From NCBI GenBank assembly GCA_020726185.1, contig DYTB01000003.1:12451-76450 (forward strand): a DNA stretch of 64,000 nucleotides, given 5' to 3'. The notes below the pieces were generated by a model. That model did not search any database. It was not told where the DNA came from and saw only the letters and a list, made by a program, of their open reading frames with translations. The position numbers and the translations under genes were made by a program. The stretch comes from Candidatus Odyssella sp. Lineage in GTDB: Bacteria > Pseudomonadota > Alphaproteobacteria > Paracaedibacterales > CAITNM01. Position 1 is the stretch's first letter, and each line of letters opens with the position of its first letter. Positions 5,714 through 61,705 of the stretch are shown here, in pieces.

Positions 5714-6379
5714 GTGCAGCAAGGATTGTTGCCTTTGGGGTATGCTCAAAGTTACGAATTGTGTGATTTTGTTGTTGCTAACTGTAATCAGATGGCTTTT
5801 GATCTCTTTCATGCTGCTCTTCAAGGCACAACCAAAGATAAGTTTGTTTGCATATATGGAGATTCTGGTTGTGGAAAAACGCACTTATTGCAGGGAATGG
5901 CTAAAGACTATAATTTAACCTACAATACTGCAAATCAAGCACTTACAACAAATTTATGGGATTGGGTTTATGGAGATCAGCAAGTTCTAATTCTTGATGA
6001 TGCTCATAAGGTAGAAGATGATGTATGGTGGTTTCACCTTTACAATTTGGTAAGAGAACAAAACAAATTACTGATTATTAGTGCCATTAACCCTCCTTCT
6101 CTGTGGCCAGTTAGTCTTTCTGATTGGCGATCTCGGTTGGCAACATTCATAAGCGCAGAAATGCATAATCCTGATGACGATACTCTAAAGCGTGTGCTTG
6201 AAAAGATATGGAAAGATAAAGGAATCGTTGTTGATAATGCTATTCTCGAATATTTATCTCGTCGGATAGATCGGAATTTTCCAGCTATCTGTCAGTGGGC
6301 AAAAAAAATTGATACGCTTTCAGCACAGCAACGCAAACCGATTACAGTTAGCATGCTACATCACCTTTTTTCAGCATGA
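5714..6379 (+). CDS. hda: DnaA regulatory inactivator Hda/HdaA
   Basis: N-terminal QxxLPL clamp-binding motif (QQGLLPL), YGDSGCGKTHL, LDDAH, DWRSRL, SRRIDR. Confidence 0.85.
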   Translation: MQQGLLPLGYAQSYELCDFVVANCNQMAFDLFHAALQGTTKDKFVCIYGDSGCGKTHLLQGMAKDYNLTYNTANQALTTNLWDWVYGDQQVLILDDAHKVEDDVWWFHLYNLVREQNKLLIISAINPPSLWPVSLSDWRSRLATFISAEMHNPDDDTLKRVLEKIWKDKGIVVDNAILEYLSRRIDRNFPAICQWAKKIDTLSAQQRKPITVSMLHHLFSA

Positions 6380-8322
6380 ATGTAGAAGTTGCAGTACCTT
6401 CAATCCTAGATAGACCGCTTACATATTTGTGGCCATTTGATATTTCTCCGAAGGTGGGGCAGCTTGTTGAAGTTCCCTTAAAAAATAGTGTGACGATGGG
6501 GGTGATCTGGTCATTGACGTCTAACCCGGTCAACTCTACTCACATCTTAAAAAAAATATTGAATTATTACCCTTTAGTCCTACCCAATCATTTTATTGGT
6601 TTTCTAAAGAAATTTGCTGAATATACGCTTACACCGTTAGGCGTTCTTATAAAGCATGTGTTACCTAAAGAAATTTCTCCTCCGATCATAACATCTGCTG
6701 AATACGTATTTAATGTTCCAGAGCTCACGCATGAGCAATGTATTGCTAAAGATGCAATTGTGAATAAACTAGGTGAATTTCACGTTAGTTTGCTAGATGG
6801 CGTGACCGGAAGTGGAAAGACCGAGATTTATCTGGAAGCTAGTGTGAAAGCTTATGAATCAGGAAAACAGACTTTAATTCTTTTGCCTGAAATAGCTTTA
6901 ACAGCCCAATTTCGTCAGCGGTTTGAAGAGCGTTTTGGGAAAAAGCCCTTGATATGGCATTCTCAAATCACTCCTAAACAAAGAAATTCTATTTGGCACC
7001 AAGCGCATCAGGGGGCTCCTTGTATTATGTTGGGTGCAAGATCTGCCTTATTATTGCCATTTAGTAATCTAGGATTATTAGTTATTGATGAAGAGCATGA
7101 TCCATCATACAAGCAAGATGAAGTGATTATTTATCATGCACGTGATATGGTTATTTTGCGCGCAAAAGAAGAGGGGGTTCACGCTGTATTAGTTTCAGCC
7201 ACCCCAAGTCTTGAGACAATCTACAATGTTAAGCAGAGAAAATTCTCTCACTTAAAGGTTAATAGTCGCTTTGGAAATGCTTCGCTGCCAACGGTGAATA
7301 TTCTTTCCATGCGAGGCCTAAAAAAAACGCAGCGCCCTAGTCAATGGCTACACCCTACTCTTTTCGAAGAGATTCAAAAACGCATTATCAACCAAGAGCA
7401 AAGCTTATTATTTTTAAACAGACGTGGTTATGCTCCATTAACAATTTGTAGTGATTGCGGTTTTAAAATTACTTGCGCTGCTTGTGACGTCGCATTGGTT
7501 CAGCATAAAAATCAGCCACGACTTCACTGCCATTATTGTGATTTTACGCAGCCAATTCCAGAAGTTTGCCCTAACTGTTCTCAAGCAACATTAAGTCCCT
7601 GTGGCCCTGGTGTTGAGCGGCTAAGCGAAGATTTAGCAAGCTTATTACCTGACGCTAGGATTTTAAGTGTGACTAGTGATTTGGTAAATACACCAAAACG
7701 CACCCAAGAAATGGTTGATGGAATTATAAACAATCAATGTGATATCATTGTTGCAACTCAAATGCTTAGCAAAGGGTATCACTTCCCAAACATTACATTA
7801 GTAGGCGTGGTTGATGCGGATATGGGGCTTAATGGACCAGATTTACGTTGTGCTGAACGAACTTATCAACAGTTGCACCAAGTTGCAGGACGATGTGGGC
7901 GAGAGCAAAAACCAGGTACTGTTTATTTACAAACTTATGATCCAGATCATTTAGTTATTAAAGCCGCGGCTAACTGGGACCAAGAAAGTTTTGTTGAGCT
8001 TGAACTAGAAGATCGTGAGCAGCATGGCATGCCACCTTTCGGCAGGCTTTCTTCGTTCTTAATAAGTGGGCGTGATAATACAGAAATTTTGAGTTTTTGT
8101 AGAAAGCTTCTGCACACTGCACCCAAACATAGTGATATTTTTATTATGGGGCCAGTTCCTGCACCGCTTTCCAGGTTAAAAAATCAATTTCGTTGGCGGT
8201 TTTTGTTAAAATACCCAAAGGGGTTTGCTATACAATCATTCATTCGTCACTGGTTTTCTCAGGTCAGCAAGCCTCATAGCATTAGATTAATTGTAGACAT
8301 TGATCCCCTAGCTTTTCATTGA
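6376..8322 (+). CDS. priA: Primosomal protein N' (PriA helicase)
   Basis: GVTGSGKTE, PEIALT, DEEHD, SATPS, LNRRG, CxxC zinc motifs, GHHFP-like GYHFP, QVAGRCGR, DIDP end. Confidence 0.97.
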   Translation: MNVEVAVPSILDRPLTYLWPFDISPKVGQLVEVPLKNSVTMGVIWSLTSNPVNSTHILKKILNYYPLVLPNHFIGFLKKFAEYTLTPLGVLIKHVLPKEISPPIITSAEYVFNVPELTHEQCIAKDAIVNKLGEFHVSLLDGVTGSGKTEIYLEASVKAYESGKQTLILLPEIALTAQFRQRFEERFGKKPLIWHSQITPKQRNSIWHQAHQGAPCIMLGARSALLLPFSNLGLLVIDEEHDPSYKQDEVIIYHARDMVILRAKEEGVHAVLVSATPSLETIYNVKQRKFSHLKVNSRFGNASLPTVNILSMRGLKKTQRPSQWLHPTLFEEIQKRIINQEQSLLFLNRRGYAPLTICSDCGFKITCAACDVALVQHKNQPRLHCHYCDFTQPIPEVCPNCSQATLSPCGPGVERLSEDLASLLPDARILSVTSDLVNTPKRTQEMVDGIINNQCDIIVATQMLSKGYHFPNITLVGVVDADMGLNGPDLRCAERTYQQLHQVAGRCGREQKPGTVYLQTYDPDHLVIKAAANWDQESFVELELEDREQHGMPPFGRLSSFLISGRDNTEILSFCRKLLHTAPKHSDIFIMGPVPAPLSRLKNQFRWRFLLKYPKGFAIQSFIRHWFSQVSKPHSIRLIVDIDPLAFH

Positions 8323-8331
8323 GCGATGGAA

Positions 8332-8354
8332 AGAGGAGCGCTTAGCACTCCTCT
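8332..8354. terminator. Hairpin between convergent priA and the isocyanide-synthase-like gene
   Basis: AGAGGAGCGC-TTA-GCACTCCTCT stem-loop; no strong U-tract. Confidence 0.5.
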
Positions 8355-8361
8355 GTAACGG

Positions 8362-9435
8362 TTATTTTAGAACGTAGGGTAATTCAATGCCAGCTACTGA
8401 CATAGTCACTATAACTCCTGCTGGAATGCCATGTACTAGATCAAACGAAGTACTATCATCAAATCTTTCGCATAGCAGCGCCGCGTGCCATGGCACACAG
8501 GTGTTTACACAATCTATACCAGGCTTACTAGCAAAATTTATACCAACTTTTGTTTCGTCTCCATGAACAGAAAGACGTAGCATACTACGATACAATTCAT
8601 GAGTTCTCACCACTTCTCTAAATATGGTAACTCCCAATTGGTAAACCCCAGACATTAACAGAGCAAGTCTCTTTCGTTCTTTCATAAGTGCTGATTTGCT
8701 TACGATCCCTTTTCCATTTAGCGCAGCATTAATAATAGGACCGTCTATTTCGTCGGTAAAAAAACGTTTTGACCCTTCTGCAGCAGCTACAATTTGTGCT
8801 TTTACCGCTTCTGAATGATAAGATTCCATCACTTTCTGCTTGAGATATTCTTCGGTCAAATCTGCACCACAACGCAAATGTGGACAGGTTCCTAGCAACC
8901 GCAAAAAAGCTGCTTTGTATTCAGCAGAATTAAGCAGTTCCATATCTATACCTAAGTCGGCTCTAATAGCCTTAAACATTTCAGGTATGTACGGTTCTTT
9001 GTTAATAATGTGGACTTCACAAGGCACTCTAACAAACTCTTGAATCTGCTCTGCTATGTGTTCAAGCCTTATAAGCCCAAGGTAATCCCCCATATCAAAC
9101 CTCTGACTTAAAACCTTTTTCCCCACATTGGTCGATTTACACGGAAACCCTAAAATCACAAATTGAATAGGTTCATCAGTACTTAGTTTACCCAGTATAT
9201 AATCTGTGTAAGCATCCCGGGCCCCGCTATTTAATGGACCGCCACCCCCTAAAAGCTGCAAATAGTCTACTATATTGTTGGCTCTTACAAGAGGGAGATT
9301 AGGTCCATCAATCTCCAGTTTAGGTAAAGTTCTTTTGTACATAGCAGGAATATCTAATTCCTCTACCGTGGTAGTAGCGCCCATAATAGGAACTGCAAAA
9401 ATCACCAGAATTAGCAACGTTAATATTTTAGACAT
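8362..9435 (-). CDS. Isocyanide synthase (PvcA/Dit1/IsnA) family protein, divergent, with signal peptide
   Basis: FVILGFPCKSTN..KKVL..RFDMGD, RLSVH...KVGI, VPWH; ATG 9435 has an AGGAG RBS and gives MSKILTLLILVIFAVPIMG. Confidence 0.8.
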   Translation of the reverse strand: MSKILTLLILVIFAVPIMGATTTVEELDIPAMYKRTLPKLEIDGPNLPLVRANNIVDYLQLLGGGGPLNSGARDAYTDYILGKLSTDEPIQFVILGFPCKSTNVGKKVLSQRFDMGDYLGLIRLEHIAEQIQEFVRVPCEVHIINKEPYIPEMFKAIRADLGIDMELLNSAEYKAAFLRLLGTCPHLRCGADLTEEYLKQKVMESYHSEAVKAQIVAAAEGSKRFFTDEIDGPIINAALNGKGIVSKSALMKERKRLALLMSGVYQLGVTIFREVVRTHELYRSMLRLSVHGDETKVGINFASKPGIDCVNTCVPWHAALLCERFDDSTSFDLVHGIPAGVIVTMSVAGIELPYVLK

Positions 9436-9575
9436 TATAATTCTCCTTTTAAAAAATTGATTAAAACAAGGCAAATAGCCGTCCTGAACAGTCAAATACG
9501 GTTTTTTAAAATTGTTAAAAAGACAAAGATTCTCCGCACTGCCCAAGAGCAGTGTTAAAAATTCTTTTCGTCAGG

Positions 9576-10607
9576 TTATTTTTTGAGGCGCATGTACTGA
9601 CATTGCAGGCCATTCACCATTTCAGATACCTCCTCAAAAATTTGAGGATCTACATCTTTTCGGAAACGAATGAACCAATTGCCATCGCCCTCTTCCACCA
9701 ACACCCCATGATAGGGAGTGACAAAAGAATAGGGTGAAAGCTTAATGCCAAACTTTTTGCCTAAGTCCTTGGAATAATGAACCGTTAGGCGAATGAAGTC
9801 CTTAGCATCAAACTGTGCTTCAAGAAAACGACGCATGCGCGTCTCTCTTGCCATAAGGGCTTTTGTGATTTTTGACAAAGGACCATGAACTTTTAAGAAT
9901 TCTCGACCTTGCACAGAATCAAATTCCACTTCAAGACGTCCTAAAAGAGTTTTGTAACTATCTTGAAGGGCAGGGTCTGTTTCAAGCTGCTTGTGAAAAT
10001 CCTCATCGCTGGGTGAGTATTTATCGATCACATCGCAAATATGCTGAGTTGATGAGAGCGCCAACTGTTCTTGTAAAAAATCAGAAGTTACCAGCGTTAT
10101 TCCTGGCATATCTTGCACAAGCTTTTGCAACCCTTGTTCGTATAACTTTACAGTTTCAGCTGAAATCCCAAGGTATTCGCAAAAAGGTATGCCATCACAA
10201 AAAATGACTAGTTCAACCCCATAGGGATAAGCTTCTTTAAGTGACTTGATGCAGCCATATAGGTACTCAAGACTGCGTCGTTCAGCCATATCAGGCACTT
10301 GGCCTAATACTTTTTTTTCTGTATTTGCTGATTTAAAAGGAAAGCCCACCAATAGAAATTTCAGTGGTTTTTTGAGACTTAAAAATTTAGTAATTTTTTC
10401 TTGTAATGATTTATAGTCAAGGAAATGAACTTCAGAAGATCTTGAAAGCTGATTTAAGCTTTTTTTATCGATATCTTGAGTAATTTGGAAAGGTTTTAGA
10501 ATGTTTAGAATTTGGTCAGATGTTAGACCTAAAACAGACTCAGAATGAGCTGGGATAGCGCTTATTAAACAGATTATACTAACTTTTATGCATACACGGT
10601 TTTTCAT
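9576..10607 (-). CDS. Isocyanide synthase (PvcA/Dit1/IsnA) family protein with signal peptide
   Basis: FLLVGFPFKSANTEKKVLGQVPDMAERRSL, IFCDG, RLTVH..KKFGI, TPYHGVLV are collinear with PvcA motifs; N-terminal MKNRVCIKVSIICLISAIPAHS. Confidence 0.88.
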   Translation of the reverse strand: MKNRVCIKVSIICLISAIPAHSESVLGLTSDQILNILKPFQITQDIDKKSLNQLSRSSEVHFLDYKSLQEKITKFLSLKKPLKFLLVGFPFKSANTEKKVLGQVPDMAERRSLEYLYGCIKSLKEAYPYGVELVIFCDGIPFCEYLGISAETVKLYEQGLQKLVQDMPGITLVTSDFLQEQLALSSTQHICDVIDKYSPSDEDFHKQLETDPALQDSYKTLLGRLEVEFDSVQGREFLKVHGPLSKITKALMARETRMRRFLEAQFDAKDFIRLTVHYSKDLGKKFGIKLSPYSFVTPYHGVLVEEGDGNWFIRFRKDVDPQIFEEVSEMVNGLQCQYMRLKK

Positions 10608-10802
10608 AATAGGTTCCTCGTAAACTTTTTCGTAAATGTTTATTCGATTTTGTTAATGCAATGTCACGCCATGAAAATTGCCAGAAGTTGTTCATGATTA
10701 ATTTCCTTATGTTAAATTGGTTTGGTATATGCATCTGATAATGCATGTTTTAATAATATAACGACATATATCATTAGGTCAATTGAATTTTTATATTATT
10801 CC

Positions 10803-11891
10803 TTATTTCGTATGAAGAATACTCAAAGATTTTTTTATGTATAAATCAATAATTTTATTTTTTAATACTTCTAATTCATCGATTCGTATATCAGGCTCTA
10901 CTCCTTCATGACCTATCCTTTTTCCAAGGGGGTCATTTAAGAATGCAATTGAAATAATTACCCCGTCTTTACGATTAGGGAAAGAAACCATTTCTTTTGC
11001 AGTTGCACTTCCTGCTGTATTTTGACCAATAAGTGTTGCGTGCTTATTCGCTTTTAATGCAGCCGCAATAATTTCTGCTGCAGAGCATGTGTTTTTGTTT
11101 TGCAGAATAATCATAGAAAGCTTATTCAAACTATCAGGTCCTGATGAGCAAAATTTTGAAAAAACATCTTTTTTTTGCATTTCAACGACAAGGTGTCCAT
11201 CTAAAAATTGACTAGCAATACCGATTCCTGCTTCAAAGCTGCCCCCAGGGCAGTCGCGTAAATCAAGAATAAGTCCTGATAGTTTTTTGTTGGTTTTAAT
11301 TTTTTGAATATGATTACGTATTTCGTCAGCAGCTTCTTTGCTTACACAACCAAACTTCAAACAAGCAACATTCCCAAACCATTTTAATTCTGCGGTTGGC
11401 GGTGTGGAATGGCCCGGAATAATCTCTTTCGTGAGTTTTTGTCTGTTTCTTAAAAGTACAATGTCATATGTTTTTTTTTCTTTTATAAGATTTAGAAAAT
11501 CATTCAGTTCAATATTTTTTAAAGATGATTTATCAAATTGCGTTAAAATATCGTCGGCCTTAATTCCAGCTGCATATGATGCTGATTTCTCAAAAACTTT
11601 TTTGACCAGCAAACCATCTTTGTGCTTAGTTAAAATCATTCCTAATTTTAATTCCCCTCCATCAACAGCTTCTCTTAAGGATTTGATTTGCATTTCATTC
11701 AAATAAGATCCGTGCGCATCTATTCCTTGAATTAACCCATGTATCATGCCTTGACGGAGTCTATCTTGATCAGGTTTTTCTGGGTATAGAGTATCAATAA
11801 TTTCGAGGGTTTCATCTAGGCTGTCGTGTAAATCTTGATAGGGATTTGAGCAACCAATTAATAACAAAAAGAAAATGATAGATAATTTCAT
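10803..11891 (-). CDS. ctpA: S41 family carboxy-terminal processing protease (CtpA-like)
   Basis: Lipoprotein-like signal (LLIGC), IDAHGSY, PDZ region, LILDLRDCPGG, CSAAEI, GVEPDI; follows gpmI-envC. Confidence 0.85.
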   Translation of the reverse strand: MKLSIIFFLLLIGCSNPYQDLHDSLDETLEIIDTLYPEKPDQDRLRQGMIHGLIQGIDAHGSYLNEMQIKSLREAVDGGELKLGMILTKHKDGLLVKKVFEKSASYAAGIKADDILTQFDKSSLKNIELNDFLNLIKEKKTYDIVLLRNRQKLTKEIIPGHSTPPTAELKWFGNVACLKFGCVSKEAADEIRNHIQKIKTNKKLSGLILDLRDCPGGSFEAGIGIASQFLDGHLVVEMQKKDVFSKFCSSGPDSLNKLSMIILQNKNTCSAAEIIAAALKANKHATLIGQNTAGSATAKEMVSFPNRKDGVIISIAFLNDPLGKRIGHEGVEPDIRIDELEVLKNKIIDLYIKKSLSILHTK

Positions 11892-16867: not shown

Positions 16868-18280
16868 ATGAAGTTAATTAATTTATTTACGTTGATTGTG
16901 TTGTGCGTTTCACAAGTGCATTCAATGATAGATTCTGGACAAGTTGATCCTTTTGTAAGTGTTCCAGGCGCAAGACCTTTTGCAATTAAGCTGAAAGCTG
17001 ACGTTGCAGCAGAATGCATGGAAAGCTTTCAAGCATTTTGCAAAGCTCAGCAAGTTGCGCGAGATAAAGCAGCAGAATACAAAGCTGTAGAATCATTTGC
17101 TAGTAGTGTGATTAGGACAACGACTGATTATCCAGATATTCATGCTCTTGACGGCATCAGAGAATGGATTAGTAAGCCTGCTAATGCAGGAGCAGCCCAT
17201 ACAGCTGGCATGGCTGGAGAAAGCAGAATTCTAACGGTTGATCTAGATACTTTAGCTGAGGTGCTGAATATAAGAGCTAAAAAGCCAGTTACTGCAGGTG
17301 AAATTGCTGAATATATTGCAGCAGCATCTCAAGCAAATGGACAAACAAAGCAATATTCTTTACTGAGGTTTTTTGCTCAGAGAATTTTAGGATATCAACA
17401 ACATGAATTGGATTCTCTAAATTCTTGGTTGAGTGGAACTAATGCAACAGCTGCAGTGTCTTCATCGAGTGCGGCTTTAAAATGTGATATTTCTTTAATG
17501 TTCAAGTTAATTAGCGCAAGGGCTGGCAGAGATATTGCTGAGGAATTTGGTCACTTTGTTGAAGAATATAATGAAAAAGAAGGTCGAGTATTTTTAAAGC
17601 AAGATTTTGATGCATTTACCATGGGTTCAGGAACAGCAAGTTCTGGAATGCCGATGCATTTTGAGCATGCAATATTAATTGAAAATGGCATGGAAACAAC
17701 TAAGCAAGCATTCCCAAAGGGATTTGACGTATCTATACCTTTGGCAGCAGTGAAGGATGAATTTCTTGGACGCTTAGTGCAGGAATGTGGTGGTGAGAGT
17801 AGAATTTATGGCCGTTTTATAATAAGAGGTCAAAGTGATTTTGTGAGTGCTGCTCATCGAGATTTAGCTACTGCTTCATCTATAGAAATTCGAGATGGTT
17901 TTATTTACCAGGGTGGAGAACTTCTAAATACAACTGATACAATTTGGGCTTTAAGCCATGAAGGTACTGTGCGTATTTATCCGCAAAAGCAATCTAGTGT
18001 CTTAGGATGTTCAAACCATCATTATCTTTTTCAAAAAGAGGGTGTGGGAATGCCAGTAGCTTGTGCTGGTCATCTAGAAGCCAATGGTAAAATTTCGAAA
18101 ATTAATCGCTCGAGTGGTCATTATATGCCAACAGAGTTACAATTCATTCTAGCAATTACTCACTTGAATGCTCTAGGCATTATTGCTGATAATGTGATCT
18201 TGAATGAAAATTCGTATTCAACCGGTTATCGCACTCTAGCAGAAGCGTTATCTGTAGCAAGTATGATTGAACTAGGATAG
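16868..18280 (+). CDS. Secreted hypothetical protein with C-terminal IQM-like (SGHY) domain
   Basis: Signal peptide MKLINLFTLIVLCVSQVHS; C-terminal IEIRDGFIYQGGELLNT...WALS...HH...ACAGHL...SGHYMPTE. Confidence 0.65.
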   Translation: MKLINLFTLIVLCVSQVHSMIDSGQVDPFVSVPGARPFAIKLKADVAAECMESFQAFCKAQQVARDKAAEYKAVESFASSVIRTTTDYPDIHALDGIREWISKPANAGAAHTAGMAGESRILTVDLDTLAEVLNIRAKKPVTAGEIAEYIAAASQANGQTKQYSLLRFFAQRILGYQQHELDSLNSWLSGTNATAAVSSSSAALKCDISLMFKLISARAGRDIAEEFGHFVEEYNEKEGRVFLKQDFDAFTMGSGTASSGMPMHFEHAILIENGMETTKQAFPKGFDVSIPLAAVKDEFLGRLVQECGGESRIYGRFIIRGQSDFVSAAHRDLATASSIEIRDGFIYQGGELLNTTDTIWALSHEGTVRIYPQKQSSVLGCSNHHYLFQKEGVGMPVACAGHLEANGKISKINRSSGHYMPTELQFILAITHLNALGIIADNVILNENSYSTGYRTLAEALSVASMIELG

Positions 18281-18334: not shown

Positions 18335-18344
18335 CTATATAAAG

Positions 18345-18495
18345 TTGAAGAACTTTTTGTGTTCGGGAATTCGGTTAAAATCCGAAGCTGCCCCCGCAAC
18401 TGTACGTTGGGAGCGCATTTTATTTTGTGCCACTAGAGCAATCTGGGAAGGTGAAAATGTCGCTATGAACAACCAGCCAGGAGACCGGCAAAAAG
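18345..18495 (+). ncRNA. Cobalamin (B12) riboswitch
   Basis: GGGAA-TCGGT-TAAAATCCGAAGCTG-CCCCCGCAACTGTA core, GCCACT...GGGAAGG B12 box, AGCCAGGAGACCGGC 3' element; directly upstream of a BtuB-like receptor; ends approximate. Confidence 0.93.
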
Positions 18496-18561
18496 AGTGT
18501 CACTTTTTCTAGATTTTGGGGAGAGATCAGAAGGGTAGCCCATGGGTGACGCGCTTATATT

Positions 18562-20349
18562 GTGCGAACCTGTGGAGGCAATTCATTGCGCTTATTTTTA
18601 TGTATTATTTTTGCGGCATCATTGCATGCATCAACCATGGTGTTGGCGCCTATTGTGGTAAGATCAAAAAAAGAGACATGCATGCCTAAATGGCAGTTTA
18701 TAGAAGCATTAACATCTGGCTCGGCAACAAGTGGTTTTGAAGAGCAACAGATCAAGAACGTGCCCGGTGTTACGACTACAACTAGTGGAAACCCTGGGCA
18801 ACTTACCACTATTAGTATTCAAGGATCGGCTTCAAGATACACCAAGATGCTTTGGTCAGGCTTAAGTATTAGTGAAACAGAAACGGATGCTGCATTGATT
18901 CCACTTTCAACAGGGAAAGCTGAAGTCGTAAAAGGCATACATTGCGCTGAATATGGAAACGGCGCTATTGGCGGTGTGGTTAATGTTATTCCATTTTCTA
19001 TGCCAGAGGGTCAAAATGGCGGATTAAAATTTAGTGGGGGAAATTATGCCAAATCTGGTCGCTTATGGTGGAACCAAAAAGCCGATGGATTTTCCATTCA
19101 ACAACACATAGAAAGCAGTAATTTCCATGGGAAAAATTCCATACCAAAAAGGTATCAGGCTAAGTATCCAACTGAAAAAAGTCCTGCAACAGAAAAGAAG
19201 TATTTCTTGAATCAGTTCGGGTTTGAAAATCATCACGCAAAAACTGCTATGCAAGTTGGTCTTATTAAGTCTGGGTCCACAGGAAGCAATATATATTTAG
19301 CGAGTCCTTATGATTCTAGATCAAAAAGAACTCTTCAGATTTATGCGCTTGATTTAGAAGGCAAATCTGAAACATTTCAGCCTTATTTGAAATTTTTGCA
19401 TGCTAAGGTTATAAGGCAAGATTTTTCACCACATCAAACAAATGGTTCTTCTGGAGTTTTGCAAAACACAAAAGTCAAAATTGGCACCAAGATAAAATCT
19501 GATTCGCTGATTTTTGAACCAGTTGTAGAGCAACACCGCAGCGTTTTAAATCCTACTGGAGACAAGTTACAGAAGAACAATGAATATGCTTTTGCTCAAG
19601 GAATTCATTTAAACCAAGACACAATTCAGTGGAAAAATTGGGCACGTATTCATAAAGCAAATCATTTCAATTCTGCCTACGCATTTAGTTCAAGTTTGTT
19701 AAAAACCCATGATGATACTGAATTTTCAGCTCATATTGGTACAGGATTTCAATTACCTAATTTATATATGCTGAATGATAAAAAGAATGGCAATAAGAAT
19801 TTGAAACATGAAACGGCTTATGGTGGTAATTTAGGCGTTGCTCAAAATACGAATGTGGGAACATTTAGCGTGCTTGTTTTTAGAACTGATCATAAACAAC
19901 AAATTAATTACAAAAACGATAGATACGTTAATCTTAATAGGTCTCGCCAAAAGGGGTTTGAGCTTGGTTGGAAAAACCAAATTGGTTCTTGGGGAACGCA
20001 ATTGTCGTGTATGTATGCTGAATCGCATAGCTTTAAGCCGAAAAAGACGCTCATGAATATTCCAAAAGTCACTGCAAACGGTCAAGTTTTTTATACAAAA
20101 GATGATATTATAACAAGTGTTGGTTGGCGTTATACAGGAAGTCAAACTCAACCAGATTTTGAGGAAACGTCTTCGCTAATTAAAAGAGGTGGCTACCCAG
20201 TATTTTTTGGAGATTTTCAATATAAGTTTAAAGAAAGTGCTACGTGGTTTGTGGCAGTTGAAAATGCACTAAACAGAAAAATAGAAAGCCCGCATGGATA
20301 CAGGAATCCTGGATTCCAAATTAACACAGGGATAAGCATCACATGGTAA
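18562..20349 (+). CDS. btuB: TonB-dependent receptor, BtuB-like vitamin B12 transporter
   Basis: Plug motifs GQLTTISIQG and EYGNGAIGGVVNVI, C-terminal VENALNR...GY...W; under a cobalamin riboswitch. Confidence 0.8.
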   Translation: MRTCGGNSLRLFLCIIFAASLHASTMVLAPIVVRSKKETCMPKWQFIEALTSGSATSGFEEQQIKNVPGVTTTTSGNPGQLTTISIQGSASRYTKMLWSGLSISETETDAALIPLSTGKAEVVKGIHCAEYGNGAIGGVVNVIPFSMPEGQNGGLKFSGGNYAKSGRLWWNQKADGFSIQQHIESSNFHGKNSIPKRYQAKYPTEKSPATEKKYFLNQFGFENHHAKTAMQVGLIKSGSTGSNIYLASPYDSRSKRTLQIYALDLEGKSETFQPYLKFLHAKVIRQDFSPHQTNGSSGVLQNTKVKIGTKIKSDSLIFEPVVEQHRSVLNPTGDKLQKNNEYAFAQGIHLNQDTIQWKNWARIHKANHFNSAYAFSSSLLKTHDDTEFSAHIGTGFQLPNLYMLNDKKNGNKNLKHETAYGGNLGVAQNTNVGTFSVLVFRTDHKQQINYKNDRYVNLNRSRQKGFELGWKNQIGSWGTQLSCMYAESHSFKPKKTLMNIPKVTANGQVFYTKDDIITSVGWRYTGSQTQPDFEETSSLIKRGGYPVFFGDFQYKFKESATWFVAVENALNRKIESPHGYRNPGFQINTGISITW

Positions 20350-35193: not shown

Positions 35194-36006
35194 TTATAGA
35201 GCTGTACCAACAGTGATAGCGCGAGCCCAAACCGCTCCGTTACCTAATTTTAAAGTTGAACCTGAGTCAAACTTCAAGCTACCTTCTGATGCTGAACCGT
35301 TCCAATGGTTGAAGAAGTCAGTGTTAGCACCAACTAAAGCAGCAGCATATGCAGGAACTGATACGCTAGCATCTACCAAAAGTGTTGCGCCAGACTGAAT
35401 CTCATTTACACCAGCACAGTATCCACCAGACATAGCTGATTTTAATTCTAGAATACCAGCAACAGTCACAGCAGGTGCGCTTGCAGCAGGCATTTTATCG
35501 CCAGATGCAGCACCAACTGCTACAGTAGCAGCTGACTCAATAACCATAGCTGAAGTACCTGCAGATAAGTCACCACCAATAGTTAGCACTTTGCTTGCAG
35601 CTGCGCCTACTGTTAGAGCCGCACCAGAAGGTGCACCCACTAGACTAGTGTCAAGAGTACATAAAAGTTTACCAGCTGTAGTCATAGTAAGAGCTGGAAC
35701 TGAAGCACTAGCTGCATTAATTTCAAGAATGTTATTAGCATTTGTATCAAAAGTTACTGCAGCTGGCATAGCGTTTGCCGCGTTAATTTCAACTTGTCCG
35801 TTAGATAATGTTAAGGCAGTTAGAGAAGCGTTGTTACCAGATAGAATTGCTTCACCAGTACCTATTTTTGATGCTGTTCCAGCGATTGCACCACTAACCG
35901 TTGCAACGTCTGATCCTGCAACTTCAATAACTAGATTTGAAGCAAAACCAGCTGATGAAGCAACAACTGTAAGCAAACCCAATGTCAATTTTTGAATAGT
36001 TTTCAT
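35194..36006 (-). CDS. Secreted beta-helix (autotransporter-passenger-like) protein, paralogue A
   Basis: ATG 36006 with AAGGA RBS; signal peptide MKTIQKLTLGLLTVVASSAGFA; KIGTGEAILSG PATR-like repeat; A/G/T/V-rich beta pattern; no C-terminal barrel. Confidence 0.7.
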   Translation of the reverse strand: MKTIQKLTLGLLTVVASSAGFASNLVIEVAGSDVATVSGAIAGTASKIGTGEAILSGNNASLTALTLSNGQVEINAANAMPAAVTFDTNANNILEINAASASVPALTMTTAGKLLCTLDTSLVGAPSGAALTVGAAASKVLTIGGDLSAGTSAMVIESAATVAVGAASGDKMPAASAPAVTVAGILELKSAMSGGYCAGVNEIQSGATLLVDASVSVPAYAAALVGANTDFFNHWNGSASEGSLKFDSGSTLKLGNGAVWARAITVGTAL

Positions 36007-36169
36007 AATGTAATTCCTTTTCAAATATAAAATGGTTAAAACTAATAACAATTATTAATTTATATTATTGAGGTTAATAAAAGGTTAATTATTAGTAATA
36101 AAATTACTTGAAGAGTGATTATTATTTTGATATACATTATTTTATTTATTGAAATACGGAATTTATAGA

Positions 36170-36305
36170 ACTGGATTCGGTGGTCAAGCCCACTAGATTT
36201 ATATAGCGGAATTGTTTGACTGGACCCTCACGCCTGCGTTGCAGGCTCAAGGAGACGGTGGGGCGGCGTCATCCTGAGCCCTTGAAAAGGGCGTCGGGAT
36301 CCAGT
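36170..36305. repeat. Palindromic REP/RPE-like cluster
   Basis: Half-element CTGGATTCGGTGGTCAAGCCCAC (36170-36193) plus doublet 36219-36256 / 36268-36305; the last arm matches the reverse complement of 35022-35059 at 37/38 nt. Confidence 0.8.
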
Positions 36306-36347
36306 GAATGATATTCATTACTATAAAATCCAATGAATCTATGCAAT

Positions 36348-36465
36348 TATCTTTTCTTAAAGAAACTCACTAAGAAAAAATATACGTCTATCTTTTCTTT
36401 AAATAGTTGACTAAGAAAGAATAACCATTTATCTTATTCCTTAATAGTGTCATAAAGAAAAGATA
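36348..36465. repeat. Three tandem ~41-bp palindromic repeats upstream of fic
   Basis: TATCTTTTCTT-N13-AAGAAAnnATA units starting at 36348, 36389 and 36430; the third ends at the base before the fic ATG. Confidence 0.75.
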
Positions 36466-37638
36466 ATGCTTAATAGTAGAATTGGCACATACGCAAATCA
36501 TAATATTGCAGGTGAGATTTATAGGTCTTACATTCCCCATAAATTACCGCCCAAACCCGATATTGACCTAACAGTCTTGCACTCTAAATTAGAAAAAGCG
36601 AATCAGTCTTTGGGGGAACTAAATGGTATCGCCAAAACAATTCCAAACGCAGCGCTTTTCACATACATGTATGTGCGAAAGGAGGCATTACTGTCATCTC
36701 AAATAGAAGGAACGCAAAGTTCATTTTCTGACCTTATATTGTTTGAAAATAGCCAAAAACCAGACATTTCAATTGATGATGTTGAGGAAGTTTCTAATTA
36801 TGTAAAGGCCCTAAATTTTGGCTTGAGCCAATTGCAAAAAGGTTTTCCATTGTCTCTGCGTTTGCTGCGTGAAATTCATGGAATTTTGTTACAAGGAGGC
36901 AGAGGCGCTAAAAAACAACCAGGTGATTTTAGGACATCTCAAAATTGGATTGGTGGTACAAGACCAGGGAATGCTTTATTTGTATCTCCTGCTCCTGAGC
37001 ATTTAATGACAGCATTGAGTGATTTTGAAAAATTCTTGCATGATAAACAGTGCAATTTGCCCATGCTTGTTAAGGCTGGTCTTGCTCATGTGCAATTTGA
37101 AACTATTCACCCTTTTTTGGATGGTAATGGGCGTTTAGGCAGATTGCTAATTACTTTATTACTTCACGAATGGGGAATTCTCAACGAACCAATTTTATAT
37201 TTAAGCTTGTATTTAAAGCAAAACCGCCAGATGTACTACGAGCTTTTGCAAAGAATGCGAGTAGATGGTTGTTATGAGGTGTGGTTAGAGTTTTTTTTGG
37301 ATGGAATCTTGCATTCAGCAACGCAGGCCATAAACACTGCGCATCAATTAAATGCTTTATTTGAAGAGGATCTTGCTAAAATTAACGCACTTGGACGAAT
37401 TAAATATTCTTGTATCAAAGTGTGGGAATACATGAAAAAACTACCGCAAGTAACAGTGCCATTATTATCGCCAGCACTAGGGATGAGCGCGCCTACAGCC
37501 AGAAGTTGCTTAAGTATTTTAGCTGAAAAAGGAATTTTAAAAGAAATCACCGAAATGCAGCGAGATAAAATATACGTGTACAAAAACTATTTGTATGTCT
37601 TAGAAAAAGGAACTGATCCGTGTGGGGCTTCCCTATGA
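36466..37638 (+). CDS. Fic family protein (Fic_N + Fic + C-terminal wHTH)
   Basis: Canonical HPFLDGNGRLGR, inhibitory SSQIEG motif, PGDFRTSQNWIGG, C-terminal HTH-like segment. Confidence 0.95.
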   Translation: MLNSRIGTYANHNIAGEIYRSYIPHKLPPKPDIDLTVLHSKLEKANQSLGELNGIAKTIPNAALFTYMYVRKEALLSSQIEGTQSSFSDLILFENSQKPDISIDDVEEVSNYVKALNFGLSQLQKGFPLSLRLLREIHGILLQGGRGAKKQPGDFRTSQNWIGGTRPGNALFVSPAPEHLMTALSDFEKFLHDKQCNLPMLVKAGLAHVQFETIHPFLDGNGRLGRLLITLLLHEWGILNEPILYLSLYLKQNRQMYYELLQRMRVDGCYEVWLEFFLDGILHSATQAINTAHQLNALFEEDLAKINALGRIKYSCIKVWEYMKKLPQVTVPLLSPALGMSAPTARSCLSILAEKGILKEITEMQRDKIYVYKNYLYVLEKGTDPCGASL

Positions 37639-37692
37639 TTTGTTGTTTAACAACAAGAAAGCGGGTATCCATAATGATAAGTATCAATAATA

Positions 37693-37726
37693 AAAAATCC
37701 CCAGCTAGAACGAACTGACCGGGGAT
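37693..37726 (-). terminator. Rho-independent terminator of beta-helix paralogue B
   Basis: Copy of 35133-35166 with two substitutions. Confidence 0.7.
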
Positions 37727-37754
37727 AATTGTAGTAACTATTAGTTCAGAAAAA

Positions 37755-38543
37755 TTATAGACCTGTACCAACAGTGATAGCGCGAGCCCAAGTAACACCA
37801 TTACCTAGTCGTAGAACAGCTCCTGAGTTGAATTTTAGAGTGTCATCAGGATCGTTGCCGAACAAGTCTCCCGAATCACCAGCTGCAGGTACTGTAACGC
37901 CATCAACCACTTTAAGTACGCCAGCACTTTGAATTGTGGTAATGCCAGGAACACATTCTGCAGCGGGGCTTGCTAAAATTTCTAGCATACCACTAATAGT
38001 GTGAATACCATCAGTAGATTTGTTCCCAGCGCCACCAACTTGCAAATTAGCAAGTGTATCTACTGTTATTGGAGTAACAGATGTACCCATGTCAGCTGCA
38101 ACAACAAGATTTCTGATAGAAGTAAGACCATCTATAGTTAGAGTTGCAGCGCCAGCAGGAGCAGCAGCCCATGAAAGGCTAGCAACGTTTAACAAGACTT
38201 CTCCGCTTGCAGACATAGTAAGGGCAGGAAGTGCTACTGTAGCATTGTTAACCTTTAGAATGTTATCTGCATTTAAATCAAAAGTAACTGCAGATGGCAT
38301 GCTTGATGCACCAGAAACGTTGAATTGACCATCAGTTAATTGCAAAGCAGCAGATACAGCACCTGAAACGTTAGCAATACCATTACCAATTTTCTGAACT
38401 GTGGCAGCTGTAAGTGCGCCAGTAACATCTGCACTTTCGCCTAATGTTACAACGTCAAGAACTAGAGTTCCAGAAGCAAAGCCTGATGTTGCAGTAGCTA
38501 CAACCGTAAGTAGACCCAATGTCAATTTTTGAATAGTTTTCAT
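37755..38543 (-). CDS. Secreted beta-helix (autotransporter-passenger-like) protein, paralogue B
   Basis: ATG 38543 with AAGGA RBS; same MKTIQKLTLGLLTVVA leader and WARAITVGTxL end as paralogue A; collinear interior. Confidence 0.7.
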   Translation of the reverse strand: MKTIQKLTLGLLTVVATATSGFASGTLVLDVVTLGESADVTGALTAATVQKIGNGIANVSGAVSAALQLTDGQFNVSGASSMPSAVTFDLNADNILKVNNATVALPALTMSASGEVLLNVASLSWAAAPAGAATLTIDGLTSIRNLVVAADMGTSVTPITVDTLANLQVGGAGNKSTDGIHTISGMLEILASPAAECVPGITTIQSAGVLKVVDGVTVPAAGDSGDLFGNDPDDTLKFNSGAVLRLGNGVTWARAITVGTGL

Positions 38544-38723
38544 AATATTATTCCTTTTAAAAATAAGATTCATACAAATTAATAGTTAGTATTGACACCA
38601 ACTATAGTTAAATATAAATACTTAATATTAATAATTAATAAATATTTTATTAATATAAAGTAAATATATAAATGAAATTATTACGGATTATTACTGTATT
38701 TATTTTTTATTGTGAATTTCTAT

Positions 38724-60352: not shown

Positions 60353-61705
60353 ATGTTCTTATCTTCTTTTAAAAGTATCACACTGTTGATTACGTGTGTT
60401 GTGCTTTTTTCGTTTGGTGGTTACGCAAATGGTGACGATTTAAAAAATACCGATCCAAATCAGCCTTTAGAGGCTAGCATAAGTTCTTGCATTAAAGATG
60501 TTCAAGAAAACCTATGGCTATCACAATTGGAGTTTGAGCAAGTAGAAAGAAAACCTGAAGATTATTCTTTTGAGGGCTGCTTTTTAAGAGCGACCAATGC
60601 TCCTTCTCCTCGGCCAATTCCCGGGCCAATAGACCATCTTGCGCATGATCAGAAATCGCTTACTGTAGCAAGATCTACGCTAGCTTGGATTATGCAAACA
60701 ACTAATACGGTTAGAAAAAAATTAAAAACAGATGCAGCAAGAAAAACCTTAGATTCTGTTATGAAAGAATGTTACATAGAAACGGATGATATTGAAAATG
60801 CGTTAAAGAGATGGTCTAAAAAACTCCCGAAAAAATACCCTGTGGATGTCGTTGATTATGAGCTTCATGATCGTTTTCAAAAAGCGTCTTCTAAAGCATT
60901 TGCTGTTTTGATTGCGCATATGAAGCCTGGAATATTAGCTGGAACAGCTTATGAACAAACAGACGTGGAAAGTTTGTGTGGTTATTTTTGTGTTATTGAT
61001 TCGGTACTTGATGATTTTTTTGAAGAGAGAGGGTTTTATGGTGCATTACAGCGTCAATTTGTTAAATGTTACGATGCTGTTCCTAAGGTGGATGTTATTG
61101 CACGTGCTAAAATTTTGAAATACGTTAACGGTTTTGGACAACGTGCACTTTCTGCTGTAGATGATCCCGATGACTATGAAGAGCAGTACGCTATTTTTGC
61201 TTTAACTAGTAATTATGAAATGGCCATAAAATTAGCATTTGTTAATAAAGCTCATCCAGATATGGATCATTATGTATTTAGCCAAGTCTGGAGATTGTAT
61301 CATTTTTCGAAGCATGCCCAAGACTTATTTGATTTTTGTAAGAAAAGCGGAAGAAAAACAATCGAAGACACACTAAAAGTAGGTGGGTGGATTGTTTGGA
61401 AGCAGGCTGAACAAAATATATGGGTTGATTCAAAGGGTTGCATAAGCGTAAGGCTGAAAAATAACAAAAAAATTTTTACCGTAGGATTTTTAGCCGAAAA
61501 TCCTAAAAATGCAAAATATAAGGAAGGTCTAGATACATATATTCTTGGGGATCGGCGTACAGAAATGTTAAAGTATCGCCCTATCCAAGGTCTTCCTTTT
61601 GTGATTTCAGGAGCTCTGGATGATGGCTATACGCCTTATTGGCATACAGAAGAGTGGGATGAGAGGTGCGATCTTATGGCGGGTGCTCATGAAAAATATC
61701 TTTAA
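60353..61705 (+). CDS. Secreted hypothetical protein
   Basis: 450-aa ORF with signal peptide ending GGYA; helical composition; no confident family. Confidence 0.6.
   Translation: MFLSSFKSITLLITCVVLFSFGGYANGDDLKNTDPNQPLEASISSCIKDVQENLWLSQLEFEQVERKPEDYSFEGCFLRATNAPSPRPIPGPIDHLAHDQKSLTVARSTLAWIMQTTNTVRKKLKTDAARKTLDSVMKECYIETDDIENALKRWSKKLPKKYPVDVVDYELHDRFQKASSKAFAVLIAHMKPGILAGTAYEQTDVESLCGYFCVIDSVLDDFFEERGFYGALQRQFVKCYDAVPKVDVIARAKILKYVNGFGQRALSAVDDPDDYEEQYAIFALTSNYEMAIKLAFVNKAHPDMDHYVFSQVWRLYHFSKHAQDLFDFCKKSGRKTIEDTLKVGGWIVWKQAEQNIWVDSKGCISVRLKNNKKIFTVGFLAENPKNAKYKEGLDTYILGDRRTEMLKYRPIQGLPFVISGALDDGYTPYWHTEEWDERCDLMAGAHEKYL

Follow-up and report, generated by a model that had tools for sequence, protein, structure and literature searches.

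Tandem PvcA/IsnA/Dit1-family genes with predicted export signals in a relative of Candidatus Finniella

The DNA considered here, called the window below, is a stretch of 64,000 nucleotides from Candidatus Odyssella sp. (contig DYTB01000003.1, positions 12,451 to 76,450 of the forward strand). It carries two adjacent genes of the PvcA/IsnA/Dit1 family, which includes the isonitrile (isocyanide) synthases. Both lie on the minus strand in the same orientation. Gene A (9576..10607), present in the list of open reading frames (ORFs), encodes an A-type member of the family of 343 amino acids, and gene B (8362..9435) encodes a divergent B-type paralogue of 357 amino acids with a predicted PvcA fold and a degenerate set of conserved residues. 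The pair is flanked by priA (6376-8322, plus strand) on one side and by a gene for an S41/CtpA peptidase (10803-11891, minus strand) on the other, which are the neighbours named in an earlier note made from the letters alone. Homologous loci were collected by a scan with one genome per species, which gave 59 loci; where single loci or proteins have to be told apart, they are cited by number (L and P, respectively).

Each gene is preceded by a Shine-Dalgarno-like element on the same strand. GAGGAA (10614..10619) stands 6 nt 5' of the ATG of A and is kept in L003-L005, and AAGGAG (9443..9448), read from the sequence, stands 7 nt 5' of the ATG of B. The longest ORF of B spans 8362-9546 and opens with a TTG at 9546. 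The ATG at 9435 is supported as the start of B, since it is the codon served by AAGGAG and since the orthologues all open with M(S/P/L)K at this point.

Family membership and divergence of the two proteins

Both products pass the gathering cutoff of the Pfam family DIT1_PvcA (PF05141; 26.4 bits): A scores 135.7 bits (E 2.7e-39) over residues 72-322, and B scores 63.3 bits (E 3.3e-17). This hidden Markov model check bears out the earlier proposal of tandem PvcA/IsnA/Dit1 homologues. The NCBIfam equivalog NF045653 (PvcA L-tyrosine isonitrile synthase), with its cutoff of 600 bits, is not reached by either A (81.6 bits) or B (21.8 bits), so that both are members of the family and not PvcA orthologues. 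The motifs that the note had listed were all found, namely FPFKSAN in A and FPCKSTN in B, RLTVH and RLSVH, KFGI and KVGI, and PYH and PWH, respectively; only the spacing of the KVL..DM stretch had to be corrected, from 3 to 4 residues (KVLGQVPDMAE in A, KVLSQRFDMGD in B). In the source databases, proteins of the A type are labelled 'pyoverdine/dityrosine biosynthesis protein Dit1' or 'isocyanide synthase family protein', and those of the B type 'hypothetical protein'.

A sequence search of the PDB matched A to PIsnA (9dhm and 9dh4) at E ~4e-19 and B to PvcA (3e59) over the FPxKSxN region only. AlphaFold2 (AF2) models have a predicted local distance difference test score (pLDDT) of 90.2 for A and 81.6 for B. 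With Foldseek, the model of A retrieves 9dhm, 9dh4 (PIsnA) and 3e59 (PvcA) as its top PDB matches (E 1e-17 to 1e-15, TM-score 0.70-0.84); the top matches of the B model are likewise PIsnA and PvcA (E 4e-11 to 2e-9, TM-score 0.46-0.62). On these models, the PvcA/PIsnA fold is predicted for both proteins. A and B are ancient paralogues of the PvcA/IsnA/Dit1 isonitrile-synthase fold. In a neighbour-joining tree with distances capped at saturation, which shows the separateness of the groups and not their rooting, the A-type (26), B-type (22) and classical (18) proteins each form an exact split, with bootstrap values of 178, 199 and 200 of 200, respectively.

The two proteins differ in what they have kept of the family's conserved residues. 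There are 27 alignment columns that are invariant or nearly so in the 18 classical and the A-type proteins. A retains all 27, including FPxKSxN, PDMAER, CDG, RLxxH, KFGI and TPxHG, and B retains 16. The changes in B are R110Y, R224F, R254G, D138-G139 to K-E, F142I, A108G, E109D, G130P, F266E and T297V. Some of them extend to the B types as a family, in which position 110 (R of PDMAER) holds Y, L or F, position 224 has F instead of R, and position 254 has G, K or C instead of R; the CDG motif is often lost as well (INKEPY in the B of the window). K92, S93, N95, Y156, E228, K285, P298 and H300 are retained in the B types. The three arginines R110, R224 and R254 would bind the phosphate of ribulose-5-phosphate (Ru5P) and/or the carboxylate of the amino acid.

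B also evolves faster. The ratio of nonsynonymous to synonymous divergence (dN/dS) is 0.14-0.25 for A and 0.27-0.35 for B, and the mean p-distance is 0.75 for B vs. 0.62 for A. Between the window and L004, dS is 0.39 in B and 0.10 in the adjoining A, a fourfold difference. A comparison of the window protein with P0065, P0066 and P0067 shows that B alleles are mosaic in four-gamete blocks: the segment at residues ~75-90 comes in two versions, as does the C-terminal stretch of ~25 residues, and each of the four possible pairings is represented, which indicates recombination among divergent B alleles. Together with the higher dS of B, this suggests recombination or diversifying exchange at B. In two close relatives, B is frameshifted by independent events and A is intact: L003 (L003:11063-12242) has an additional G (+1) beside a T-run, with the truncated product found on 41 contigs, and L005 (L005:11140-12257) has a 5-nt TCCAC duplication, with the truncated product found on 3 contigs. 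The faster evolution, the mosaicism and the independent frameshifts mark B as accessory and not indispensable. The earlier idea of two equivalent synthases has to be given up, because B has lost 11 of the 27 invariant residues, among them the three arginines and the DG motif, and is broken in these two relatives.

These results bear on an alternative that we consider unlikely, namely that A and B are exported PvcA-fold proteins which no longer make isonitriles and either perform other chemistry in the envelope (Dit1-like N-formylation or a reaction with another amine or keto substrate) or only bind ligands. Such a change would agree with the position of both proteins under the NCBIfam PvcA cutoff, with the loss of three invariant arginines from B, and with the lack of a PvcB, glycosyltransferase or nonribosomal peptide synthetase tailoring gene nearby; moreover, yeast Dit1, which belongs to the same family, has been reported to act without isonitrile formation (PMC7345447). 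It is opposed, for A only, by the conservation in A of every column that is invariant in the 18 PvcB-linked classical homologues and by purifying selection. The two observations together argue for an unchanged core chemistry in A and are silent on B. Judged by its residues, A is probably catalytically competent.

The two-gene cassette

The arrangement is not confined to this genome. It is a conserved cassette that recurs across several intracellular lineages: an A-type gene has an adjacent B-type gene on the same strand in 19 of the 23 distinct leader-type loci. The sources are relatives of Finniella, Dependentiae/Babeliales, other metagenome-assembled genomes (MAGs) of alphaproteobacteria and one Verrucomicrobiales MAG. 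A precedes B in 11 loci, and B precedes A in 5. One locus of a Dependentiae MAG (L019:9923-13545) holds one A-type and two B-type genes, and Holospora curviuscula (L031:9905-10558) has a truncated A-type ORF of 217 amino acids only.

Across loci, the distances among the A genes rise with those among the paired B genes (Mantel r=0.84, with none of 5000 permutations as high), which means that the two genes have travelled together. A profile of the B family, run against 1.84 billion representative proteins, matched 424 proteins at E<=1e-3, of which 93 reach E<=1e-10; in the best ~80 matches, the B residue signature goes together with an N-terminal signal peptide. The B-type family comprises at least 90 clusters at 50% identity, whose members are currently labelled hypothetical proteins.

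Classical loci are built differently. They have a single synthase gene with a TauD-family gene (PvcB) directly downstream in 36 of 36 cases (Streptomyces, Bdellovibrionota, Pseudonocardiales and others). None of the 26 leader-type loci, the whole 64-kb window among them, has a TauD hit, and the earlier statement that no PvcB/TauD partner is adjacent holds for the entire window. A third conserved neighbour of the pair (a transporter, cytochrome P450 or glycosyltransferase) was sought without success, the only recurrent gene being a generic ABC ATPase at 4 loci. The family also contains a DIT1_PvcA-TauD fusion of 741 amino acids (P0160), which has the classical residue signature.

N-terminal leaders and predicted export

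Both proteins begin with a hydrophobic leader ahead of the PvcA homology. The signal-peptide-like leader of A comprises codons 1-22 (10542..10607, minus strand; MKNRVCIKVSIICLISAIPAHS) and has a putative cleavage site AHS↓ES, where the arrow marks the point of cleavage; that of B comprises codons 1-21 (9373..9435, minus strand; MSKILTLLILVIFAVPIMGA). Read up to the start of the putative mature protein, the N-terminus is MKNRVCIKVSIICLISAIPAHS followed by ES in A and MSKILTLLILVIFAVPIMG followed by A in B. The n-, h- and c-regions can be written as MKNR..K, VSIICLISAIP and AHS↓ES in A, and as MSK, ILTLLILVIFAVP and IMG↓A in B. Each leader has a basic n-region, a hydrophobic core, a c-region with Pro/Gly, small residues at -3/-1 and an acidic mature start. 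The criteria used for the Sec/signal peptidase I pathway were a positive n-region, an h-region of ~7-15 residues, small residues at -3/-1 and a neutral or acidic mature start, and all of these are present in A and in B. In the AF2 models, pLDDT falls below 50 at residues 1-4 and 16-21 of A and at residues 1-24 of B. A lipoprotein signal was considered for the two proteins of the window and rejected, as neither has a lipobox; an A-type protein elsewhere (L022:9914-10918) does have one, FLSSC.

A hydrophobic N-terminal segment was found in every full-length homologue retrieved, 63 of the A type and 21 of the B type, the N-terminus being missing from a few truncated entries (P0011, P0043 and P0076). 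The leader of A is kept in the orthologues P0001-P0010, and a hydrophobic leader persists down to 31-43% identity although its residues diverge. In the classical proteins (n=18), the maximal 12-residue hydropathy ahead of FPxKS is 0.9-2.1, at a position away from the N-terminus; for the A and B types the values are 1.6-3.4, at residues 1-52, mostly 3-25. When a home-made signal heuristic was applied to all ORFs of the window, it flagged A, B, the DUF4139 protein, CtpA, the TonB-dependent receptor and similar proteins, and none of ~30 cytoplasmic enzymes.

That the leaders are an annotation artefact, with the true starts lying 3' of them and the products being ordinary cytoplasmic synthases, is scarcely credible. 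The maximal ORF of B does offer several starts (TTG 9546, ATG 9435, and the internal M18 and M32). A, however, offers no further ATG, GTG or TTG in frame before M107, which is already within the catalytic domain, both chosen ATGs have good ribosome-binding sites (RBSs), and the leaders are kept with their hydrophobicity in all orthologues, whereas in place of M32 of B they have I, T or V. A later start therefore cannot strip the leaders. The signal-peptide-like leaders proposed in the note are supported, and the escape through downstream starts, which was checked, fails.

The charge distribution around the hydrophobic segment was used to judge its orientation. In the clade of the window, the flanks of A carry +3.9 on the N-terminal and -1.2 on the C-terminal side, and the orientation is that of a signal peptide (N-in) in 10 of 10 proteins. 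The N-in orientation also holds in 6/6 and 4/4 more distant alphaproteobacterial A types and in 18/18 B types, which makes 38 of 38 alphaproteobacterial sequences of the two types. The h-region of A in the window clade, at ~12-14 residues, is too short for a bilayer span. More distant members have canonical small-x-small sites (ALVA↓ST, SPVNA↓EL, PSLQA↓DV, NPCFA↓SA and SCFA↓ST, the last two in B types), and B types of Dependentiae have the cleavage site A↓MEHVP. From these sequence features, Sec-type signal peptides are predicted to direct A and B across the inner membrane. For the A of the window clade, the AHS↓E site, the distribution of charges and the shortness of the h-region speak for a cleaved signal peptide.

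We read A as an exported isonitrile-synthase-type enzyme and B as an exported, degenerate accessory paralogue, the two forming a self-contained cassette of two genes. To us, this reading stands evenly poised between right and wrong: its inferred parts are that the proteins are exported and cleaved, what the substrates are, that an isonitrile is formed, and what B does. Several points weigh against it. The prediction of export rests on heuristics and comparison; the h-region of the A leader is short and contains a Lys. In Dependentiae, the N-terminus of the A type is a transmembrane (TM) segment of 16-26 (median 20) uncharged residues followed by a K/R-rich stretch, and its charge is ambiguous (20/39 N-in, 8/39 neutral and 11/39 N-out), so that the A domain may not be exported in every member of the family. 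In L010:3291-5414, an A domain shares one ORF with a BrnQ-type carrier (Branch_AA_trans, profile positions 4-381 of 429), and P0198, a protein of 1025 amino acids with the classical residue signature, is a fusion of a major facilitator superfamily (MFS) transporter (MFS_1) with a C-terminal DIT1_PvcA domain; fusions of this kind point to cytoplasmic, membrane-associated enzymes. The L010 ORF may join transporter and synthase in a genuine fusion, or may have arisen when an A domain was inserted in frame into a truncated brnQ; its count of TM segments is unreliable by simple hydropathy. A BrnQ of presumably 12 TM segments would leave the C-terminus of this carrier in the cytoplasm. Further, Ru5P is a cytoplasmic metabolite that would have to be available in the endosymbiont's periplasm, the ligand roles of the residues lost in B are presumed, and a TauD, P450 or other partner may lie elsewhere in the genome, beyond the window.

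Many of these points would suit another arrangement, which we hold to be possible and rather improbable: A and B would be membrane-tethered cytoplasmic enzymes, the hydrophobic segment, at least that of A, serving as an N-out/C-in anchor or an uncleaved tether near amino-acid carriers or exporters, and only the product, perhaps with B, would reach the periplasm. The TM-type A of Dependentiae with its 11 of 39 N-out cases, the in-frame joining of an A domain to a BrnQ-type carrier, the MFS fusion, and the cytoplasmic location of Ru5P and amino acids all agree with it, as does the cytosolic location of known family members (Dit1, PMC7345447). Against it stand the flank charges of A in the window clade, the short h-region and the AHS↓E site behind it, the canonical AxA sites or lipobox of other alphaproteobacterial A types, and the clear signal peptides of all B types; the L010 junction, with its profile ending at 381 of 429, may itself be an insertion into a truncated brnQ.

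Genomic setting, proposed role and known systems

Candidate control elements surround the pair. A sigma-70-like promoter for A may lie at 10753..10782 (minus strand), with TTGACC, a spacer of 16 or 18 nt and TATATT or TATTAT; it is a consensus match only (10 of 12 positions), and the stretch TTGACC...TATATTAT is also found in L003 and L004. An upstream ORF of 38 codons (10579..10695, minus strand), provided with an RBS of its own, shares 29 nt with the start of A. The frame stays open at equal length in L003-L006, down to 71% identity of A, while its amino acids diverge, and aromatic residues (W/F/Y) abound at positions 4-12 (MNNFWQFSW..., MNTYWQFTRF..., MKNFTNLAWYFY...). As A would use aromatic amino acids, this ORF may encode a leader peptide or serve for translational coupling. 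A search for an RNA switch in the leader of A gave a weak consensus of -5.8 kcal/mol and no convincing covariation. The stop codons of the convergent genes B and priA are separated by a hairpin of 10 bp (8331..8354, minus strand; -16.4 kcal/mol, z -3.8, 1 of 200 shuffles as stable), which may act as a bidirectional terminator or stabilise the mRNA; both options are kept because it has no T-run. The trace of transcription is a single 253-nt contig of a peat metatranscriptome that covers 9587-9839 in the 3' part of A.

The genome belongs to the Paracaedibacteraceae (Holosporales) and is closely related to that of Candidatus Finniella. A is 97% identical to a protein of an uncultured alphaproteobacterium MAG and 94% identical to one of a Ca. 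Finniella inopinata MAG, and the Holosporales suggested by the note are borne out. Species of Finniella live as endosymbionts in the cytoplasm of cercozoans and ciliates (PMC11909080). The window sequence occurs in biofilm, cave and lake metagenomes. Among its other genes is one for a TLC ATP/ADP translocase (47772-49358, plus strand; Pfam E 9e-173), a hallmark of energy-parasitic intracellular life, which is followed by a gene for a 993-residue Pyr_redox_2/Fer4_20 protein.

Other features of the window concern uptake and secretion. A cobalamin riboswitch (18340-18507, plus strand; 99.8 bits) lies directly 5' of a gene for a TonB-dependent receptor (18562-20349, plus strand), which for this reason is probably a BtuB-like system of B12 uptake; an ExbD/TonB-like cluster and ABC ATPase genes follow downstream. 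Two paralogous secreted proteins, both starting with MKTIQKLTLGLLTVVA... and having no Pfam match (35194-36051 and 37755-38573, minus strand), flank a Fic/DOC-family gene (36466-37638, plus strand), and the three genes (35194-38573) may form a host-interaction island. Two further proteins of 470 and 450 amino acids (16868-18280 and 60353-61705, plus strand) have signal peptides and no Pfam match.

Isonitrile synthases are not known to need ATP or a redox cofactor, and only two substrates are named for them, so that A could in principle run in the periplasm. In the published reaction, a carbon of Ru5P becomes linked to the amino-acid nitrogen of Trp or Tyr (PMC7949033). A would most likely still condense an aromatic amino acid (Tyr or Trp) with Ru5P to an isonitrile or a related N-C1 product. 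In a cytoplasm-dwelling, ATP-importing endosymbiont, Ru5P and amino acids of the host cytosol could enter the periplasm via porins, and the isonitrile would be made at the surface of the symbiont. B, which occupies the position of PvcB/IsnB, would be an accessory or non-canonical partner (in binding, in the use of an altered substrate or facing the host) that can be lost in some lineages.

A wider picture can be drawn, which as a whole we regard as doubtful. Protist-dwelling obligate intracellular bacteria (Holosporales, Dependentiae and others) would share a horizontally spread cassette in which an active extracytoplasmic synthase turns Ru5P and aromatic amino acids of the host into a surface isonitrile, a metal- or haem-binding or enzyme-inhibiting shield, and in which a hypervariable exported pseudo-enzyme paralogue is the partner that faces the host or handles the product.

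Full-text literature searches for exported isocyanide synthases, isonitriles in Dependentiae, the family in Holosporales, and PF05141 in symbionts returned nothing relevant, in line with the remark of the note that it knew of no described precedent. The fold is known and the chemistry probably so; what is probably new is the compartment, the partner logic and the host-associated distribution. Family members whose location can be checked are cytoplasmic (Dit1) or have no export signal (the 18 classical sequences), and the cassette departs from them in three respects: it is a leader-bearing A/B pair, it has no dioxygenase within reach at 26 loci, and among the sampled genomes it occurs mainly in Holosporales, Dependentiae/Babeliales and uncultured MAGs. 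These data suggest an envelope-located version of isonitrile chemistry that has so far not been described. If export is true, an endosymbiont would run secondary-metabolite chemistry in its periplasm directly on host metabolites, which would be a new logic of chemical interaction between symbiont and host and a source of unexplored isonitriles. With two genes and a chemistry taken to be cofactor-free, the cassette is a small and defined target for experiment. The work also delimits a large unannotated family, the B type.

The closest known systems are PvcA, IsnA and PIsnA (PDB 3E59, 9DH4 and 9DHM), with which A and B share the Pfam family and the predicted fold, and A in addition all 27 invariant residues. 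The classical enzymes, however, have no N-terminal hydrophobic segment, whereas A and B have export-type leaders; the classical partner is the TauD-type dioxygenase PvcB/IsnB, whereas here it is a degenerate paralogue; and the A- and B-type clades are separate from the classical one. Yeast Dit1 belongs to the same Pfam family, and its product ends up in an extracytoplasmic layer, the spore wall (N-formyl-tyrosine/dityrosine pathway). Dit1 differs from A and B in having no signal peptide or TM segment and in its partner, the P450 Dit2; it was found experimentally to be cytosolic and reportedly does not form an isonitrile (PMC7345447). No Dit2-like P450 was found among the Pfam-annotated genes of the 21-kb locus L001, the rest of the window not having been scanned systematically.

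A functional analogue of an envelope-located synthase may be seen in the 'perimeter defence' by rhabduscin of Xenorhabdus and Photorhabdus (isnA-isnB-glycosyltransferase genes). Rhabduscin is a Tyr-derived isonitrile at the cell surface of Xenorhabdus that blocks the phenoloxidase of the host (PMC6386379). There it is the product alone that has been reported as surface-associated (PMC6386379), and the IsnB and glycosyltransferase genes of that system are absent here. Fused isocyanide synthases (ICS), such as the XanB-like ICS-TauD and the MFS-ICS proteins, resemble the cassette in that the ICS domain is recurrently coupled to partners or membrane transporters. Those fusions carry the classical residue signature and are expected to face the cytoplasm, whereas the present cassette consists of two proteins of the predicted ICS fold, each with its own putative Sec signal.

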